From assembly GCA_036375135.1 (NCBI GenBank), contig DASUSL010000091.1, positions 10,947-74,946 on the forward strand: 64,000 bases of DNA, given 5' to 3'. This DNA is from Thermoanaerobaculia bacterium. Its GTDB lineage: Bacteria > Acidobacteriota > Thermoanaerobaculia > Gp7-AA8. Shown here piece by piece: positions 7,491 through 15,441 of the stretch; position 1 is the first letter of the stretch; each line of letters opens with the position of its first letter. The position numbers and the translations under genes were made by a program. Under the pieces are notes generated by a model. That model was not told the DNA's origin. It ran no database searches and saw only the letters and a list, made by a program, of their open reading frames with translations.

Positions 7491-8491
7491 ATCGTGAGGA
7501 ACCCCGCGCGGTCGGTGGCGACGAGGGAGTTGCTGGCCGGGTCGAAGGCCAGAGCGTAGGCGTCCACGCCATACAGCGATGCGGGCGTGACGCCGCGGGT
7601 CGAGCCGGGGAAGGCGGTGCTCGCGCTGCAGCGGCGCTCGGCGTAGACGACCAGCGTATCCGCGCCGGCGACCGTGGCCACCTGCGGGCCGGCGTTCTCG
7701 GGGATGCACACGCGGTTGCCGTTCACGAGCTCCCTGCCGGACTTCACCGCCTTCTCGAAGATCGCGTCGCGGCTGAAGGCGACGAGGGAACGGTCGCCCG
7801 CGGCGAACGTCGCGGACTCGATGGTCTTGTCGGTCTGCATCGGGTCGCGCGAGATCACGGTGAAGGTCTTCGTGTCGAATAGCGTTACGGCCGTGGCCTT
7901 GGCGTTGCCGAAGTTCTCGGTGGCGAAGACCGCGAGGGTGTTGCCGCTCGCGCTGACGGCGATGGTCATCGGATCGTCGATCGGCAGCGTGCGCAGCTCG
8001 GTGTCGCCCTCGCGGTCGTAGACGTGGACCTTGCGGCCGAGGACGTAGACGTAGCGGCCCTTCGGATCGGGGATGACGTCGCGGATCCGCTCGCCCTCCA
8101 TGGTGATCTCGCGGAGGACGGCCAGGTTCGGCAGGGAAAGGATCAGCGCGCTCTCGTCCGTACCGTTGGCGATGTAGAGGCGCGAGCGGTCGGGATTCGT
8201 GCGCAGGGTGACCAGCTCCTTGGTTGCGGCGATCTGCGCGGAGTCGAGGACGACGTGCTTCCGGACCGTGCCGGTCGCGGGGTCGATCGCGGCGACGGAC
8301 TGCGTCTCGGCCAGGCCGACGTAGATGGTGCCGTCGGCACCGACGGCGACGCCGCGCGGGTCGCCGGACAGCGTCCAGCGCTTGATCACCTTCCGGTCTT
8401 TGGTGGAGACGGGCCTGAGGGTGTCAGCGACCAATGCAGGGGCGAAGAGCGACACCGCCGCGGAGGTGAGCAGGACGAGAGCGGCGAGTCT
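7457..8491 (-). CDS. secreted YVTN/NHL-type beta-propeller repeat protein
   Basis: Signal-peptide-like SRSRLAALVLLTSAAVSLFAPALVA, followed by repeated G.DG.IYV / dPa.g.v motifs. The start codon is unclear: there is no canonical start between the purS stop and the signal peptide; in-frame GTG at rc 8453-8455 or an upstream ATG overlapping purS are alternatives. Confidence 0.6.
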   Translation of the reverse strand, partial: RLAALVLLTSAAVSLFAPALVADTLRPVSTKDRKVIKRWTLSGDPRGVAVGADGTIYVGLAETQSVAAIDPATGTVRKHVVLDSAQIAATKELVTLRTNPDRSRLYIANGTDESALILSLPNLAVLREITMEGERIRDVIPDPKGRYVYVLGRKVHVYDREGDTELRTLPIDDPMTIAVSASGNTLAVFATENFGNAKATAVTLFDTKTFTVISRDPMQTDKTIESATFAAGDRSLVAFSRDAIFEKAVKSGRELVNGNRVCIPENAGPQVATVAGADTLVVYAERRCSASTAFPGSTRGVTPASLYGVDAYALAFDPASNSLVATDRAGFLTIYNLPRPAVAR

Positions 8492-8738
8492 ACTCCTCGA
8501 GTGTGTAGGAGAATTTTTCGATGACCGTGTTCGCGAGGAGCCGCTCACACATCTGCCGAAGCTGCGTTTCGACGTTCTCCCGTGTCTGCCCACCATCCGC
8601 AAGCGTAATTCGGAACACTTTGCCCACCCGCACATCTTCCACACCGGAGAAGCCGAGCGAGCTCAGCGAGTGCTCGATGGCCTTGCCCTGAGGGTCGAGG
8701 ACGGACGGTTTGAGCTCGACGGTAACGGTTGCCTTCAT
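8490..8738 (-). CDS. purS: phosphoribosylformylglycinamidine synthase subunit PurS
   Basis: 82 aa MKATVTVELKPSVLDPQGKAIEHSLSSLGFSGVEDVRVGKVFRITL...MCERLLANTVIEKFSYTLEE matches the PurS family over its full length. Confidence 0.9.
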   Translation of the reverse strand: MKATVTVELKPSVLDPQGKAIEHSLSSLGFSGVEDVRVGKVFRITLADGGQTRENVETQLRQMCERLLANTVIEKFSYTLEE

Positions 8739-8855
8739 CGGGCGCGGATTCTATCTCCTCCGTCCCACGGAGGATAACGATGAACGATGAGCGATGAACC
8801 GCCTTCACCCCGGATGGGAGGCAGGGTTCATCGTTCATCGTTCATCGCTCATCGT
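8739..8855 (-). promoter_or_regulatory. structured purS leader: long imperfect hairpin built from GAACGAT/ATCGTTC heptamer repeats, plus a small hairpin that pairs the purS Shine-Dalgarno
   Basis: GATAACGATGAACGATGAGCGATGAACC ... GGTTCATCGTTCATCGTTCATCGCTCATCGTTC arms. On the purS sense strand, CCTCCGTGGGACGGAGG occludes GGAGG about 14 nt before the ATG. Confidence 0.5.
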
Positions 8856-9692
8856 TCAAAAGAGCGATAGCTGGCCCGGGAGGGGCTTGCGCTCGCGGCG
8901 GCGGGCGACGTCGAAGAGGCCTGTCGGCTCGAATTGTTTCGCAATGGAAAACTCGAGGCTCGCGCCCGTGCGGCGAAGCAGGCGCGTGCACATGTCGCGG
9001 ACGATCGACTCGTGGTTGTTCTTCTGCGAGAGGTGGATCATGCAGAGCGTCTTCAGGTCGGCGCCGAGGAGGCGCTGCACGGCGCTCACGGAATCGTCGT
9101 TCGACAGGTGGCCGAACCGCGACATGATCCGGCGCTTGAGCGACCACGGATAGCTGCCCATGCGGAGCATGTCCAGATCGTGGTTGGATTCGAAGAACAG
9201 GCCGTCGCATCCGCTGAGGTGGTCGAGCACTTCGCGGTTCACATAGCCGAGGTCGCTGGCGATGCCCACGCGGGTGCCGTCGCGGGACTCGATGACGAAG
9301 CAGGAGGGGTCCGCCGCGTCGTGGATCGTCTTGCGGGCGTGGACCTGCAGCTCGCCGATCCGGAACGTCGTGTCGTTCTGGAACACGACCATCTTCACGT
9401 CCGTCGTGTCGATGTTCGACGCGTCGAGCGTGCCTTTGGTCAGATAGATCGGCACCTCGTACTTGCGGGCGATCTTCTCCGCCCCGCGGATGTGATCGTA
9501 GTGCTCGTGGGTGACGACGATCGCCGAGAGCCGCTCGATGTCGCACCCCAGCGTGGCCAGGCGCTTCTTCGTGTCCCTGGGACCTATGCCGGCGTCCACG
9601 AGGATGGCTGTGCCGTCGCTCTCGAACCAGTAGGCATTCCCGGCCGAACCGGAGGAGAGAGGGGCCACGAGCATGGAGCGATGGTAGCTCAT
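8856..9692 (-). CDS. MBL-fold metallo-hydrolase
   Basis: THEHYDH (HxHxDH) motif and GSGSAGNAY N-terminus; about 270 aa. The start may be the internal ATG (MLVAPLSSGS). Confidence 0.8.
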   Translation of the reverse strand: MSYHRSMLVAPLSSGSAGNAYWFESDGTAILVDAGIGPRDTKKRLATLGCDIERLSAIVVTHEHYDHIRGAEKIARKYEVPIYLTKGTLDASNIDTTDVKMVVFQNDTTFRIGELQVHARKTIHDAADPSCFVIESRDGTRVGIASDLGYVNREVLDHLSGCDGLFFESNHDLDMLRMGSYPWSLKRRIMSRFGHLSNDDSVSAVQRLLGADLKTLCMIHLSQKNNHESIVRDMCTRLLRRTGASLEFSIAKQFEPTGLFDVARRRERKPLPGQLSLF

Positions 9693-9744
9693 TACCGCCA
9701 GCTCTGCGCTCGCTCAGGGCTAACCGGGTATGATCCGGCGCGAA

Positions 9745-11034
9745 ATGGCTGAACGGTTTATCGTCGAAGGTGGTCACCGGCTCGAAGGCTCGATCCGGCC
9801 GGGCGGCAACAAGAACGCGGCGCTGCCGATCCTGGCGGCGTGTCTGCTGACGGACGAGCCGGTGGTGCTCCGGAATCTGCCGGACATCCAGGACGTCCGG
9901 GTGATGCTGCAGATTCTCGAAGGGATCGGCGCCTCGGTCGAGCGTCTCGAGCAGAACGTCGTGCGCGTCACCGCGAAGGGCGACATCTCCTGCAACCCCG
10001 ACACGGAGCTGTCGAAGAAGATCCGCGCCTCGATCCTCCTGGCCGGGCCGCTGCTCGCGCGGTGCGGGAGTGTCTCCGTGGCGAAGCCGGGCGGAGACGC
10101 GATCGGCCGGCGCCGCGTCGATACGCATCTCCTCGCGCTGGAAGCCCTCGGCGCGCAGATCGAAGTGTCGGCGTACGAATACAACATGTCCGCCCGCGCG
10201 CTGCGCGGGAAGAAGATGTTCCTCGACGAGGCCTCGGTCACCGCAACCGAGAACGCGATCATGGCCGCGGTGCTGGCCGAGGGCGATACGTTGATCTACA
10301 ACGCCGCCGCCGAGCCGCACGTGCAGGACCTCTGTCACATGCTCATCTCCATGGGCGCGCAGATCGAGGGGATCGCCACCAACCAGTTGAGGATCCAGGG
10401 AGTCGAGGCCCTGCACGGCTGCGACTACACCATCGCCAGCGATCACATCGAGGTCGGCTCGTACATCGGCCTGGCGGCGGTGACGCGCAGCGAGCTGGTG
10501 ATCGAGGACGCCGTCCCCGAGCACATGTACGCCGTGCGGCACATGCTCGAGAAGCTCGGCGTCGAGATCAAGATCGAGGGGAAGAACATCCGCGTCCCGC
10601 GCAACCAGGAGCTGCGCGTCCGCTACGACATCGGCGCCGCGGTGCCGAAGATCGACGACGGACCGTGGCCGCTGTTCCCGGCGGACCTGCTGTCCATCAT
10701 GGTGATCATCGCCACGCAGGCCGAGGGGACGGTGATGATCTTCGAGAAGATGTTCGAGTCGCGCCTGTTCTTCACGGACAAGCTGATCGGCATGGGCGCG
10801 CGGATCATCCTCTGCGACCCCCACCGGGCCATCATCGTCGGCGGCGCGCGCCTGTACGGCGGCGAGATCTCCAGCCCCGACATCCGCGCCGGCATGGCTC
10901 TGCTCCTGGCCGCGCTCTGCGCGAAGGGGGAGAGCATCATCCACAACGTGCATCAGATCGACCGCGGCTACGAGCGGATCGACGAGAGGTTGAACGCGCT
11001 GGGGGCGCGGATCCGGCGCGAACGGGACGTCTGA
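9745..11034 (+). CDS. murA: UDP-N-acetylglucosamine 1-carboxyvinyltransferase
   Basis: MAERFIVEGGHRLEGSIRPGGNKNAALPILAACLL...; full-length EPSP-synthase-fold MurA. The ORF also allows an upstream ATG at 9730. Confidence 0.95.
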   Translation: MAERFIVEGGHRLEGSIRPGGNKNAALPILAACLLTDEPVVLRNLPDIQDVRVMLQILEGIGASVERLEQNVVRVTAKGDISCNPDTELSKKIRASILLAGPLLARCGSVSVAKPGGDAIGRRRVDTHLLALEALGAQIEVSAYEYNMSARALRGKKMFLDEASVTATENAIMAAVLAEGDTLIYNAAAEPHVQDLCHMLISMGAQIEGIATNQLRIQGVEALHGCDYTIASDHIEVGSYIGLAAVTRSELVIEDAVPEHMYAVRHMLEKLGVEIKIEGKNIRVPRNQELRVRYDIGAAVPKIDDGPWPLFPADLLSIMVIIATQAEGTVMIFEKMFESRLFFTDKLIGMGARIILCDPHRAIIVGGARLYGGEISSPDIRAGMALLLAALCAKGESIIHNVHQIDRGYERIDERLNALGARIRRERDV

Positions 11035-11427
11035 GTGCTCGCTTCGCTGACGCCGGACGATCTGGATGCACTCGCTGACGCGCGGCTGCACGACGCCGAG
11101 GCGTTGCTGGCGGCGGGCCGGTTCGACGGCGCGCGGTATGTCTGCGGGTATGCCGTCGAGTTGAAGCTCAAGGCGCGGATCTGCAGAGCGCACGGATGGG
11201 AGGAGTACCCTCCGGTGCCACAGCTCGCACAGGCGCTCAAGACGCATAACCTGCTCGTGCTGTTGCTGCTTTCCACGATGCAGACGACAATACTTTCGCA
11301 GCACGGGCAATACTGGTGGGTGGTCGTGCCGTGGACACCCGAACAGCGATACGCCACGGCAGCCGTGACGGCACAGGATGCGCAGACGATGATCGATGCA
11401 GCGCGCGCTCTGATGGCGGTTTTATGA
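11035..11427 (+). CDS. HEPN domain protein (PF05168-like)
   Basis: GTG start immediately after the murA stop (TGAGTG). DLDALADARLHDAEALLAAGRFDGARYVCGYAVELKLKARICRAHGW...KTHNLLVLL matches the HEPN helix pattern with the Rx4H motif. Confidence 0.75.
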   Translation: MLASLTPDDLDALADARLHDAEALLAAGRFDGARYVCGYAVELKLKARICRAHGWEEYPPVPQLAQALKTHNLLVLLLLSTMQTTILSQHGQYWWVVVPWTPEQRYATAAVTAQDAQTMIDAARALMAVL

Positions 11428-11816
11428 TCGAGCCCAGACACATCCAGAACGTTCGGCGGCGCCTCATCGCCGATCGTGGACAACTCACCTTCCTCGCGCT
11501 CTTCGAGCGTGACGAGGAGCCCGGCTGGTGGGATCTGCTGATCGCGGGGAGTGACCTGCGTTCCGACACGCTGGCCCACTACTCGTATGTCGCCGATGTG
11601 CTGCGGGCGGAGCTGACGCGGGATGAGATGGTGCGGCTCGCGAAGGTCGTCCTGCTTCCCGAGGATTATGAGCCCATCCAGAAGCTGCTGAGGCGAGTGC
11701 ATGTCGAAGACGGTGAGCCGGTCGAGCTCGAGTACTTCCGCTTCCACGAATTCCTCATTCGGCGCGCGCTGATCTTTCAGGCTGTTCCCGCCGCGGTGGG
11801 TGCCGAAAAGGCGTGA
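11424..11816 (+). CDS. hypothetical protein (130 aa), translationally coupled partner of the HEPN gene
   Basis: ATGA overlap with the HEPN stop; ends TGA 11814-11816, overlapping the folP GTG start. No canonical MNT motif (GSx9-13DxD is absent: only LLIAGSDLRSDT). Confidence 0.55.
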   Translation: MIEPRHIQNVRRRLIADRGQLTFLALFERDEEPGWWDLLIAGSDLRSDTLAHYSYVADVLRAELTRDEMVRLAKVVLLPEDYEPIQKLLRRVHVEDGEPVELEYFRFHEFLIRRALIFQAVPAAVGAEKA

Positions 11817-12619
11817 GCGACGCGCACGGCCCCGCCGTGATGGGCATCCTCAACGTCACGCCGGACTCGTTCTCGGACGGTGGCCTGCACTACGACCGCG
11901 CGGTGGCCATCGACGCCGCGCTGCGGATGGAGCAGGACGGCGCGGCGATCATCGACGTGGGCGGCGAGTCGACGCGCCCCGGATCGGACACCGTCTCCAT
12001 CGACGAAGAGCTGAGCCGCGTCATCCCGGTGATCGAAGGCATTCGCGCACGCAGCGGAGTGCGCATCTCCGTCGACACGAGAAAAGCGGAAGTGGCCGCG
12101 GCGGCGCTCGATGCCGGCGCGGACATGGTCAACGACGTCACGGCATTACGCGACGCGGAGCTGCGCGCGCTGGTCGCCAGTCGCGGCGTGCAGGTCATCC
12201 TCATGCACATGCGCGGCGAGCCGAAGACGATGCAGGACGACATCCACTTCGACGACGTCGTGCACGACGTCGCCCGCGAGCTGCAGCAGTGGCGCGACGA
12301 CGCCGTCGCCGCCGGCGTGAAGAAAGAGAACATCCTCATCGACCCCGGCATCGGCTTCGGCAAGACCTTCGAGCACAACCTCGAGATCCTGGCGCGCTGC
12401 GACGAGTACCGCAGCATCGCCCCCGTGGTCATCGGCGCGTCGCGCAAGGCCTTCATCGGACACCTCACCGGGCAGCCGGGCGGCGCGCCGCGCATGGCCG
12501 GATCGCTCGCGGCCGTGGCCGCGGCGGCGAAAGGATGCGCATCGTACGTGCGCGTGCACGACGTCCGCGAGACCGTCGATTTCCTGAAGGTGCTGGCCGC
12601 GATCGAGGCGCACGCGTGA
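11813..12619 (+). CDS. folP: dihydropteroate synthase
   Basis: ILNVTPDSFSDGG, IDVGGESTRPG and pterin-binding motifs over the full length. Alternative ATG start at 11840. Confidence 0.92.
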   Translation: MSDAHGPAVMGILNVTPDSFSDGGLHYDRAVAIDAALRMEQDGAAIIDVGGESTRPGSDTVSIDEELSRVIPVIEGIRARSGVRISVDTRKAEVAAAALDAGADMVNDVTALRDAELRALVASRGVQVILMHMRGEPKTMQDDIHFDDVVHDVARELQQWRDDAVAAGVKKENILIDPGIGFGKTFEHNLEILARCDEYRSIAPVVIGASRKAFIGHLTGQPGGAPRMAGSLAAVAAAAKGCASYVRVHDVRETVDFLKVLAAIEAHA

Positions 12620-13386
12620 ACTTCTTCGACCGCCTGCTGCTGCTCAACTTCACGTGGCGCGACGCGGTCGACATCCTCATCGTCGCCCTGATCATCTACG
12701 GCATCTTCGCGCTCATCCGCGGCACGCGGGCCATGCAGATCTCCATCGGCCTCGTCATCCTCGGCTCGACCTTCTTCGTCGCGCGGGCATTCGACCTTCC
12801 CGCCCTCGAGGCCATCTCGGCGCAGATCCTCTTCTATCTTCCCTTCGCGGTGATCGTGCTGTTCCAGCAGGAGATCCGCCGCGCGCTGGCGCGCATGGTC
12901 GGCAACCCGATGGCCATCTTCTTCCGCCGTCCCGACGGCACGCTGCCGATCGACGCCATCGTGCACGCGTGTGACGTCCTGGCGTCGAAGCGCGTCGGAG
13001 CGCTGATGGCCATCGAGGGACGGCAGACGCTGCGCATGTACGAGGATGGGGCGAAGCCGGTGGATGCGGTGCTGACGAACGAGTTGCTGGTCGCGATCTT
13101 CACGCCGGGCGGTCCGCTGCACGACGGCGCGGTGCTGATCCGCGGCAACCGCATCGCCGCGGCGAACGCGTTCCTGCCGCTGACGTCGACGCCCGATCCG
13201 ACACTCGCGCACGGGACGCGTCACCGCGCGGCGATCGGACTCAGCGAGGAGACCGACGCGCTGGTGATCGTCATCTCCGAGGAGAATGGGTCGACGGCCC
13301 TGGCCGCGGACGGCGTGCTGCGCGAGAACGTCGACAGCGGCGCGCTGCGCGTGGCGCTCACCGAGCGCTTCGGAGCCTCACGTTGA
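12617..13386 (+). CDS. cdaA: diadenylate cyclase CdaA (c-di-AMP synthase)
   Basis: Three N-terminal TM helices followed by a DisA_N domain (DGAVLIRGNRIAAANAFLPLT, GTRHRAAIGLSEETDALVIVISEENG). GTGA overlap with folP. Confidence 0.9.
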
Positions 13387-13420: not shown

Positions 13421-14131
13421 ATGAAGAACCTCGGCCTCAAGCTCGTCTCGCTGCTGCTGGCGTGCATCCTCTGGTGGTACGTGTCGCTGCCGCGGCGCGA
13501 GGAAGTGCGCGAGCGCGTGGTCACGGCGTCGCTGGCGCTGGTGGGGATGCCGTCCTATCTCGTCATCACCACGCCCGACATCCCCAGCAGCGTGGCCGTG
13601 CGCGTGCGCGGGCGGAAGACCGACCTGCGCGGCGTGGCCTCGCAGACCCTCGAGGCGTCCGCCGACCTGAGCGCCATCACCACGCCGGGTGAAGTCGAGA
13701 TCACGATCCGCGCGCGGCACATCAACGTGCCGGACGAGATCGAGGTCATCTCCATCGAGCCGTCGAAGGTGCGCTTCCGCGTGGAGCAGTTGCGCCAGCG
13801 CGCGGTGCCGATCCGGCCGTTCCTCGACGGCGGCGTGCCGGCGGGCTTCATCATCGGACAAGCCACCGCGGAGCCGCCGCTGGCGCTGGTGTCCGGGCCG
13901 GCGTCGCAGATCATGAAACTGGCCGAGGTCACGACGGAGCGCATTATCATGACCGGCCGCACGGAGACGTTCGTGCAGAGCGCGGGCGTCATCGCCGACT
14001 CACCGCTGGTGCGGATCATCTCGCCGCTCACCACACAGATCACGGTTCCGGTGCTCGCGGAGGTCGGACCCGAGCCGCCCACGGACACGAGCGGTACGAC
14101 CGGCACCACGGAGACCACGAGCACACAATGA
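13421..14131 (+). CDS. cdaR: CdaA regulatory protein CdaR (YbbR-like domains)
   Basis: N-terminal TM helix followed by YbbR-like repeats. Position between cdaA and glmM is the conserved cdaA-cdaR-glmM arrangement. Confidence 0.75.
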   Translation: MKNLGLKLVSLLLACILWWYVSLPRREEVRERVVTASLALVGMPSYLVITTPDIPSSVAVRVRGRKTDLRGVASQTLEASADLSAITTPGEVEITIRARHINVPDEIEVISIEPSKVRFRVEQLRQRAVPIRPFLDGGVPAGFIIGQATAEPPLALVSGPASQIMKLAEVTTERIIMTGRTETFVQSAGVIADSPLVRIISPLTTQITVPVLAEVGPEPPTDTSGTTGTTETTSTQ

Positions 14132-15441
14132 GACAACTCTTCGGCACTGACGGCATCCGCGGCAAGGCGCGGCAATATCCTCTCGACGAGCCGACGCTGA
14201 TCCGCCTCGGATACGCCCTCGCCAAACGCTTCCCCGGCAAAGTCCTCCTCGGCCGCGACACGCGCGAGTCGGGAGCGATGATCGCCGGCGCACTCGCCGC
14301 CGGCCTGAAGGCAGGCGGCGCGCAACCGGTGGCGGTCGGCGTCATCCCCACGCCCGGCATCGCCTGGCTCTGCAGAACGACAGACGATGCCGTCGCGGCG
14401 ATCTCGATCTCCGCTTCGCACAATCCGTGGGAAGACAACGGCGTGAAGATCTTCGGTCACGACGGGATGAAGCTGCCCGATCGCATCGAGCTGGAGATCG
14501 AGCAGGACCTCGAGCGCGTCGACATCGGCGCGCAGACGTCGACCGAGAACGACGAGGAATCGCCGGAGCTCATCGAAGCGTACGAGCGCTTTCTCATTTC
14601 AGGGATCCCGCCCGCGGCGCTGAAGGGACGCAAGGTCGTGCTCGACGTCGGTCACGGAGCCGCCTATCGAATCGCGCCGGAAGTGTTCCGCCGCGTCGGC
14701 GCGGACGTCGTGGTCATCCACGACGCGCCGGACGGCCGCAACATCAACGAGAACGCCGGCGCGATGCATCCGGAGCGGCTGGCCGAGGTGGTGGTGGAGC
14801 AGCAGGCGGACTACGGCGTGGCCTTCGACGGCGACGCCGACCGCGCCATCTTCGCCGACGACGCGGGAAAGATCCGCGACGGCGACGAGATCATCTATCT
14901 CTGGGCGAAACACCTGAAACTGCCGCTGGTCGTGACGACGGTGATGTCGAACTTCGGCTTCGAAAAACAGCTCCAGGCCGACGGCATCGAGCTGCTGCGC
15001 GCACAGGTGGGCGACAAGTACGTCCTCGAGCAGATGCTCGAGCGCGACGCGCTCCTCGGCGGCGAGCAGTCCGGCCACATCATCGACCGCACCGTGCACA
15101 CCACCGGCGACGGCATCCACACCGCGGTCGTCTTCGGCAGCATCCTCGCGGAAATGGGACAGCCGTTCTCGAAGCTGCACACGTTCGACCCGATGCCGCA
15201 GCTTCTGCTGAACGAGAAGGTGGCCTCCAAGCCGCCGCTCGAGTCGCTGCCGAAGTATCAGGAGGCGCACGCCGCCGCACTGCGCCAGCTCGATGGGAAG
15301 GGACGCATTCTCGTGCGCTACTCGGGAACGGAGAATCTCGTCCGCGTGATGGTGGAAGGGGAGGACGACACGCTGATCCGGCGCATTGCGGAGGAGCTGC
15401 GCGGCGTGCTCAAAGAGGAAATCGATGACGTGTCATCCTGA
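14128..15441 (+). CDS. glmM: phosphoglucosamine mutase
   Basis: MRQLFGTDGIRGKA ... SASHNP (phospho-Ser loop) ...; 437 aa full-length GlmM. Confidence 0.95.
   Translation: MRQLFGTDGIRGKARQYPLDEPTLIRLGYALAKRFPGKVLLGRDTRESGAMIAGALAAGLKAGGAQPVAVGVIPTPGIAWLCRTTDDAVAAISISASHNPWEDNGVKIFGHDGMKLPDRIELEIEQDLERVDIGAQTSTENDEESPELIEAYERFLISGIPPAALKGRKVVLDVGHGAAYRIAPEVFRRVGADVVVIHDAPDGRNINENAGAMHPERLAEVVVEQQADYGVAFDGDADRAIFADDAGKIRDGDEIIYLWAKHLKLPLVVTTVMSNFGFEKQLQADGIELLRAQVGDKYVLEQMLERDALLGGEQSGHIIDRTVHTTGDGIHTAVVFGSILAEMGQPFSKLHTFDPMPQLLLNEKVASKPPLESLPKYQEAHAAALRQLDGKGRILVRYSGTENLVRVMVEGEDDTLIRRIAEELRGVLKEEIDDVSS

Follow-up and report, generated by a model that had tools for sequence, protein, structure and literature searches.

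Organization of the locus

Two small genes lie between murA, encoding UDP-GlcNAc 1-carboxyvinyltransferase, and folP in the window, that is, the whole stretch of 64,000 nucleotides that was analysed (Table 1). The first encodes a HEPN protein and the second a protein of an unannotated family, here called the partner; together they are referred to as the cassette. The GTG start codon of the HEPN gene begins with the base directly after the murA stop codon, the HEPN stop codon overlaps the start of the partner gene, and a GTGA is shared both by the partner stop and the folP start (at 11813) and by the folP stop and the cdaA start (at 12616). Reading frames and overlaps were checked on the sequence, and the layout of the murA/HEPN/partner/folP junctions given in the initial annotation was reproduced in all coordinates and all stop/start overlaps. 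An 822-residue ORF antisense to murA, which reaches into the HEPN gene, is a high-GC shadow without support; such shadow ORFs misled simple gene-calling heuristics.

Table 1. Features of the window around the cassette, with positions counted from the first base of the window.
Feature	Position	Strand	Remarks
purS	8490-8738	-	
Repeat hairpin	8777-8853		between purS and the MBL-fold gene
822-aa ORF	8842-11310	-	antisense to murA
MBL-fold gene	8856-9692	-	
murA (UDP-GlcNAc 1-carboxyvinyltransferase)	9730-11034	+	Pfam EPSP_synthase, E 1e-79; TGA at 11032-11034
Cassette gene 1, HEPN-T (AF0298-like), 130 aa	11035-11427	+	GTG start
Stop/start overlap ATGA, HEPN/partner	11424-11427	+	
Cassette gene 2, partner, 130 aa, unannotated alpha/beta family	11424-11816	+	ATG start
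folP (dihydropteroate synthase)	11813-12619	+	GTG start; Pfam Pterin_bind, E 1e-78
cdaA (diadenylate cyclase)	12616-13386	+	Pfam DAC and CdaA_N
ybbR/cdaR-like gene	13421-14131	+	Pfam YbbR
glmM	14128-15441	+	Pfam PGM_PMM I-IV; overlaps ybbR at 14128

Scans of the region for promoters, terminators and Rfam families returned no sigma-70-like promoter, no intrinsic terminator and no Rfam family inside the cassette, which would be read as part of a murA-folP-cdaA-ybbR-glmM operon without a visible promoter or terminator of its own. Its GC3 is 0.77-0.79, compared with 0.87-0.93 in the neighbouring genes. Between the window and a related locus that also carries the cassette (L010:4001-4776), the dS of the cassette is ~0.95-1.0, or 2.5-3 times that of the flanking genes murA, folP and glmM (0.31-0.41). 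Low GC3 and high dS appear to mark the cassette as foreign or as under less constraint; the two features could stem from a weaker codon bias, from exchange of cassette alleles or from recombination that affected the flanks.

The window has a GC content of 67% and many long spurious ORFs, the frame antisense to murA being one example, which speaks for reading the two small ORFs as chance reading frames in high-GC DNA. Against this stand the in-frame conservation of both ORFs in dozens to hundreds of genomes, dN/dS values well below 1 and confident structure models for both proteins, and the probability that they are not genes is practically nil. Close relatives of the partner fall into 29 clusters (68-98% identity) and relatives of the HEPN ORF into 66, with identities down to 44%; named sources of these relatives are Thermoanaerobaculia/Acidobacteriota MAGs. 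Comparison with the closest genomes gives both genes a dN/dS of 0.10-0.26. AF2 models built from alignments of the relatives have pLDDT values of 94.7 for HEPN and 90.4 for the partner, and the GTG start of the HEPN ORF agrees with the N-termini of aligned homologues. The GC artefact considered in the initial annotation is ruled out, as both ORFs are conserved and under purifying selection.

The HEPN protein

In the predicted fold of the HEPN protein, four helices form an up-down bundle, and an insert separates helix 2 from helix 3. The model resembles solved HEPN domains, in agreement with the original assignment of the gene. This relationship came from the fold search, and a search of PDB sequences with the HEPN profile returned noise alone (PD-1 matches). 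An alignment of 46 relatives contains seven invariant polar residues (Arg29, Tyr35, Glu42, Lys46, His71, Arg105 and Tyr106), and Arg48 is nearly invariant. With helix boundaries taken from the AF2 model, the conserved site consists of Glu42-x3-Lys46 in helix 2, His71 in the helix 2-3 insert, and Arg105-Tyr106 ending helix 3. The canonical Rx4-6H motif is absent from the end of helix 3, where Arg105 is invariant and has no histidine 5-7 residues on. Both an Ex3[KR] motif in helix 2 and the alternative histidine of the insert are present in the 46 sequences. The stretch RICRAH had at first been taken for an Rx4H-type active site, a proposal that we abandon because Arg48-His53 sits in helix 2 and residue 53 is leucine or serine in most relatives.

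The combination of Ex3K, an insert histidine and an arginine, as in AF0298-like HEPN-T proteins and AbiV, has been proposed to form an alternative RNase site (Anantharaman et al., PMC3710099). The cassette protein is a HEPN-T domain (PF05168) of the AF0298-like subgroup. By analogy with the HEPN family, its Glu42/Lys46/His71/Arg105 site would be expected to have RNase activity. To our knowledge, RNA cleavage has been shown for no AF0298-like HEPN-T protein. In the PADLOC library the HEPN protein matches PDC-M28A weakly, with E-values of 7e-5 to 4e-8. A central member of the HEPN family, searched against plasmid and phage GenBank, gave one weak match in each. Pfam scans detected no DNA-binding domain in either HEPN or the partner.

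The partner protein

When 1.84 billion representative proteins were searched with a profile (E ≤ 1e-3), ~460 clusters of partner sequences at 50% identity were obtained, mostly 120-140 residues long. Neither the single partner sequence nor a 100-member profile matched Pfam, NCBIfam, PADLOC, PHROGs or PDB sequences; when 100 diverse members of the family were searched one by one, none of them matched Pfam and no consistent match to PADLOC emerged. Only Gly19, Trp36 and Asp37 are nearly invariant in the family, whose consensus reads ..G.F.LFALFLRED....WDLVVAAPW... Among the longer homologues of the partner examined for extra domains, the sole find was a 221-residue protein (P0198), in which an N-terminal HEPN fragment (PF05168, residues 6-46) precedes a partner domain (residues 103-213); it is probably a frameshifted cassette or a fusion of both genes.

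The model of the partner has the predicted secondary-structure order alpha-beta-beta-alpha-alpha-beta-alpha-beta-beta. A Foldseek search against the PDB returned as its top match the MNT antitoxin of a HEPN-MNT complex (7ae2_B; E = 5.6e-3, probability 0.94), followed by 7ae9, 7aer, 5yep and 6m6w, with TM values of only ~0.36; the immunity protein MafI2 is also among the best structural matches. The initial annotation had pointed out that the partner lies downstream and lacks the MNT signature, and this is borne out: the GS and DxD elements are absent and there is no annotated family. The hG[GS] and [DE]x[DE] nucleotidyltransferase motifs, both invariant in an alignment of solved MNTs, are missing from the partner family. 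In hhalign, the family was assigned a probability of 0.14% against this alignment, a small and low-powered one made of four solved sequences recovered with a consensus-like query. A standard MNT or antitoxin family, the alternative raised at the outset, was rejected for the partner on the missing nucleotidyltransferase motifs, the lack of Pfam NTP_transf matches and this hhalign result.

These data bear on the idea that the pair is a very divergent true type VII HepT-MntA system, in which the partner would AMPylate a tyrosine of HEPN, for example Tyr106 beside Arg105. The top Foldseek matches are indeed MntA antitoxins, an order of alpha-beta-beta-alpha-beta in the partner parallels the MNT core, and in HEPN an invariant tyrosine adjoins a conserved arginine. 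However, next to the missing motifs the partner offers a single conserved acidic residue, Asp37, which is lost in the prophage cousins described below; Pfam NTP_transf is found in 0 of 100 family members, the profile comparison is negative, and the gene order is opposite to the MNT-first order that is near-universal in HEPN-MNT pairs (PMC3710099). We regard a true type VII system as very improbable. A related proposal, that the partner descends from an MNT antitoxin but has lost catalysis, has switched from AMPylating to stoichiometric neutralization and has been relocated to the 3' position, is possible but doubtful. The "dead MNT" is to be taken as a lead and not as a finding, and AMPylation is unlikely, because the nucleotidyltransferase motifs are absent, the fold matches are weak and the profile comparison is negative.

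Pairing and co-evolution of the two genes

Among 185,579 genomes, each representing a different GTDB species, 405 (~0.2%) contained a relative of the HEPN gene, and these belong to more than 12 phyla. The groups represented comprise Acidobacteriota, Verrucomicrobiota, Pseudomonadota, Desulfobacterota, Planctomycetota, Chloroflexota and Chlamydiota, and further Patescibacteria, Gemmatimonadota, Bacteroidota, Rokubacteria, KSB1, Poribacteria and Binatia. Eighty species-level loci were kept, two of which end at contig edges; the 78 untruncated ones, which again cover more than 12 phyla, all have the partner gene directly 3' of the HEPN gene on the same strand. HEPN is the 5' gene in every one of the 88 loci that carry both genes, and in 86 of these the two are joined by a 4-nt stop/start overlap (ATGA in 74, GTGA in 11 and TTGA in one), which is therefore a trait of the module and not of the murA-folP operon. 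The overlap would make synthesis of the partner dependent on translation of HEPN.

Pairwise identities of the two proteins correlate (r = 0.77), and the partner diverges faster, with a mean pairwise identity of 33% versus 52% for HEPN. Antitoxins usually diverge faster than their toxins. HEPN and partner constitute a fixed, portable two-gene module. Two small, co-oriented, overlapping and co-evolving genes with a patchy distribution and a presence/absence polymorphism have the generic features of a type II-like toxin-antitoxin (TA) pair.

Prophage-borne relatives in E. coli

A distant relative of the HEPN protein is phrog_5737 (E = 1e-14 against the window copy, 31-36% identity), which occurs in viral contigs (L090-L119) and in 190 of 5426 complete E. 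coli genomes (~3.5%). The prophage pair occupies the moron slot of the lambdoid nin region, between the gene of replication protein P/ren and ybcN(ninB)-ninE; an example is found in the chromosome of E. coli STEC409 (NZ_CP041422.1, 1378722-1379518; L120:5001-5797). The native E. coli pair is represented by the proteins WP_001038620 and WP_000520499. Downstream of the prophage HEPN gene, and overlapping it by 22 nt, lies a gene for a 133-residue protein (phrog_5760), which aligns collinearly with the partner family at a level that is not significant (hhalign E = 0.013, probability 3%). The only link of the partner to PHROGs runs through these distant prophage cousins. In the probable prophage homologues Asp37 of the partner is replaced by arginine or lysine.

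Compared with the cassette, the E. coli pair likewise combines a related HEPN protein with an overlapping second gene of equal size, and the motifs of the second proteins are collinear (a conserved tryptophan and a C-terminal hairpin). Homology of the partners is suggestive only. Both prophage genes are annotated as "unknown function". The two arrangements differ in the overlap (22 nt there, 4 nt here), in the replacement of Asp37 and in their carriers, the E. coli pair residing on prophages whereas the window cassette sits in a housekeeping operon.

The roles of the two proteins might be reversed, with the partner as the toxic effector and HEPN as a non-catalytic antitoxin or regulator. Such an assignment would agree with the rule that the 5' gene of a TA pair is usually the antitoxin (PMC3710099), with the lack of Rx4-6H in HEPN and with the near invariance of Gly19, Trp36 and Asp37 in the partner. 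It is at odds with the faster evolution of the partner, the usual signature of an antitoxin, and with the retention of the invariant Ex3K/H/R constellation in HEPN; the exchange of Asp37 for arginine or lysine argues against catalysis, and the best structural matches of the partner are antitoxins and immunity proteins (MNT antitoxins and MafI2). We consider reversed roles unlikely.

Genomic contexts of the cassette

The tree of the module conflicts with taxonomy, and one MAG contains two different copies of the cassette on separate contigs of CAZOAL01 (isolate SRP119689_co1_304; L066 and L069). Multiple copies per genome are common for TA modules. Elsewhere the cassette is found between pyrH and frr, between genes for an ABC permease and LysE, and in a run of small unknown ORFs. 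In the first of these contexts, on an acidobacterial-like contig (ENA NODE_1201; L005:4264-6448), the genes for a HEPN protein of 131 residues and a partner of 155 residues are separated from pyrH and frr by gaps of only 8 and 27 nt, so that here too, and independently, the cassette rides a core operon. For 38 loci, half of the total, the two longest ORFs in either flank were compared with Pfam. They gave 129 different families, mostly of housekeeping function and including one transposase, with no common theme; defence genes were not enriched in these flanks. On the strength of its distribution and its tree, the cassette appears to spread horizontally between phyla. The pair is thus not peculiar to the murA-folP operon; as a widespread, portable module it recurs in many genomic settings.

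Filled and empty murA-folP junctions

Six further murA-folP loci carry the cassette (L001/L011; L003/L004/L136; L010; L012; L054; L125). Relative to the window copy, identities range from ~73% down to 48% for HEPN and from ~75% down to 31% for the partner, the partner of L054 being 31-33% identical. In the module tree the cassettes at this site are monophyletic, and they branch as the host genes do, a pattern that fits one ancient insertion followed by vertical descent.

MurA is 87-96% identical among relatives, and most close relatives have an empty junction. Eighty metagenome loci with 83-92% identical MurA comprised 69 empty, two filled and nine truncated ones; folP directly follows murA in 69 of the 71 informative loci, in some with a 4-nt overlap, and in all four contigs sampled with 87-90% identical MurA. 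In a neighbour-joining tree of MurA and FolP (no bootstrap), the filled sites fall within one larger clade, where they are interleaved with empty ones. Where the junction is empty, murA and folP overlap by 4 nt, lie 5-20 nt apart, or are separated by 80-257 nt that include a repeat hairpin, and no remnants of the cassette were found in these spacers. Given the interleaving and the lack of remnants, there have therefore been several clean losses, or else exchange by recombination through the conserved flanks. The pair had been thought impossible to lose without disturbing folP translation, a view contradicted by the 69 of 71 loci and the four contigs that are empty. As most close relatives do without it, the cassette is an optional passenger of the operon and is not locked into it; it is inserted at murA-folP in a few soil Acidobacteria and is the exception at this site.

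The window itself contains a hairpin of the kind seen in some of the empty junctions, located between purS and the MBL-fold gene (-51.5 kcal/mol, z = -6.7). Its arms are tandem repeats of 6-7 nt, for example (CGATGAA)n ... (TTCATCG)n, and the 12-mer GATGAACGATGA occurs five times in the window versus 0.46 expected. Repeat hairpins are also present in the murA-folP spacers of L126, L127, L132, L134, L140, L141, L143, L167 and L176, and the units in the empty junctions of relatives are either the one seen in the window or different ones (GGATGAAGG, AATGTTC, GTTCCGC). The hairpins look like a REP/MITE-like family that targets operon junctions; they have no match in Rfam.

Persistence at one site over such distances could also mean that the cassette encodes a domesticated, non-toxic heteromer, in which HEPN would bind RNA or a nucleotide and the partner would serve as its structural mate. 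Such a complex would have a regulatory or RNA-processing job in the host, possibly tuning its own operon (murA-folP-cdaA-glmM here and pyrH-frr elsewhere). The missing canonical motif of HEPN is in line with this, as are the lack of an own promoter or terminator, the embedding in housekeeping operons, which is seen independently at least twice, vertical inheritance at murA-folP over a large divergence under purifying selection, and the absence from defence libraries and from a defence-island context; inactive, domesticated HEPN domains are known to serve as binding modules (PMC3710099). A host function of this type is difficult to reconcile with presence in so few species genomes (~0.2%), which are nevertheless spread over more than 12 phyla in a tree that contradicts taxonomy, with the same operon lacking the cassette in most close relatives, with several clean losses, with the atypical codon usage of the cassette, with cousins in a prophage moron slot, and with invariant polar residues at the proposed alternative HEPN active-site positions. 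We assign a rather low probability to domestication.

Proposed mode of action

We slightly favour the view that the cassette is a mobile, translationally coupled pair of the TA or abortive-infection type, composed of a HEPN effector and a non-enzymatic partner that neutralizes it. Strict pairing, co-evolution, patchy spread over many phyla and presence/absence polymorphism all fit a TA- or defence-like nature, as judged from comparative sequence data. The HEPN-T protein, with its AF0298-like alternative site (Ex3K, the insert histidine and the arginine), would be the likely RNA-targeting effector. The partner would be its obligate cognate mate, may descend from the MNT fold, and would restrain HEPN by stoichiometric binding, not by AMPylation; binding is suggested because the partner has no catalytic motifs. 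The gene structure, folds, pairing, distribution and evolution of the module are directly supported by the data; RNase activity, toxicity, neutralization by binding, a trigger and any role in addiction or anti-phage defence are predictions, made by analogy with other HEPN proteins and from population genetics of the TA kind.

The cassette may have moved horizontally and landed exactly between murA and folP, which are normally adjacent or overlapping, in one sub-lineage of the Thermoanaerobaculia; vertical inheritance and repeated clean deletion would have followed. Classical autoregulation is not evident, because the partner has no recognizable DNA-binding domain and the window copy no promoter-like site. 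The cassette may benefit its host, because it has persisted vertically at murA-folP down to partner identities of 31-33% (L054). Against a TA pair speak the absence of the canonical Rx4-6H motif, flanks that are not enriched in defence genes and the lack of a consistent PADLOC match for the partner. The effector-first order, a minority arrangement among TA pairs, counts against it as well.

Significance

Many TA and anti-phage systems have HEPN proteins as their effectors, among them Cas13, Csm6, RnlA, HepT and AbiV. The module described here is one more HEPN two-gene module, and the lock-in to an essential operon once claimed for it is refuted. It couples HEPN strictly to a partner family that is absent from Pfam, NCBIfam and PADLOC and touches PHROGs only at entries of "unknown function". 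Hundreds of species of many phyla nevertheless carry the module, and a distant form in ~3.5% of complete E. coli genomes makes bench testing easy.

As a promoterless cassette that is translationally chained into the operon, it would express a HEPN RNase in step with envelope and c-di-AMP genes. The promoterless cassette would ride an essential operon by translational coupling, and the filled and empty murA-folP junctions offer a natural experiment in which a promoterless selfish cassette enters such an operon and leaves it without a scar. If the partner turns out to be a dead MNT, it would provide an example of an enzymatic antitoxin that evolved into a binding-type one. The module would then represent a new, widespread class of HEPN TA or anti-phage systems, with ~460 clusters, more than 12 phyla and E. 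coli prophage cousins, and its HEPN protein could make an arrest of growth depend on the state of translation of the murA-folP-cdaA and pyrH-frr operons.

Comparison with known systems

The pair had been suspected to be undescribed, and we found no description of it in the libraries or the searchable literature. Literature searches for HEPN with a degenerate nucleotidyltransferase, or for HEPN with murA and folP, returned nothing relevant. For the PADLOC candidate system PDC-M28 no paper was found; no partner sequence matches any of its components, and HEPN alone matches PDC-M28A, weakly.

Like HEPN-MNT pairs (type VII HepT-MntA), the module consists of a small HEPN-fold protein and a partner of ~100-140 residues encoded by tightly linked genes, it is horizontally mobile and scattered across prokaryotes, and the best, albeit weak, structural matches of its partner are MntA antitoxins. 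Unlike in HEPN-MNT, the HEPN gene comes first, and the partner has no GS or DxD element, no nucleotidyltransferase Pfam domain and no detectable profile-profile homology. The HEPN protein also differs from HepT (DUF86) in being of the HEPN-T/PF05168 AF0298 type and in having only Arg105-Tyr106 in place of Rx4HxY. Neutralization by AMPylation is unlikely because these type VII hallmarks (gene order, nucleotidyltransferase motifs and Rx4HxY) are absent. AF0298-like HEPN-T proteins (UPF0332; PDB codes 2hsb, 1wol and 1ufb) and AbiV are 16-19% identical to the window HEPN; the archaeal and thermophile AF0298-like proteins are typically encoded beside a true MNT at the 5' side, whereas here a different, unannotated family lies at the 3' side.

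The rnlAB and lsoAB systems, which are tied to phage defence and mobile DNA, share with the module an effector-first order and a downstream protein neutralizer of unrelated fold, as predicted here for the partner. In contrast to the cassette protein, RnlA and LsoA are large, consist of several domains and have the canonical HEPN active site, and RnlB and LsoB, which are not among the fold matches of the partner, have no sequence or structural relation to it. The module falls outside both type VII and PDC-M28; it is most like HEPN-MNT in its working and is ordered like rnlAB and lsoAB.
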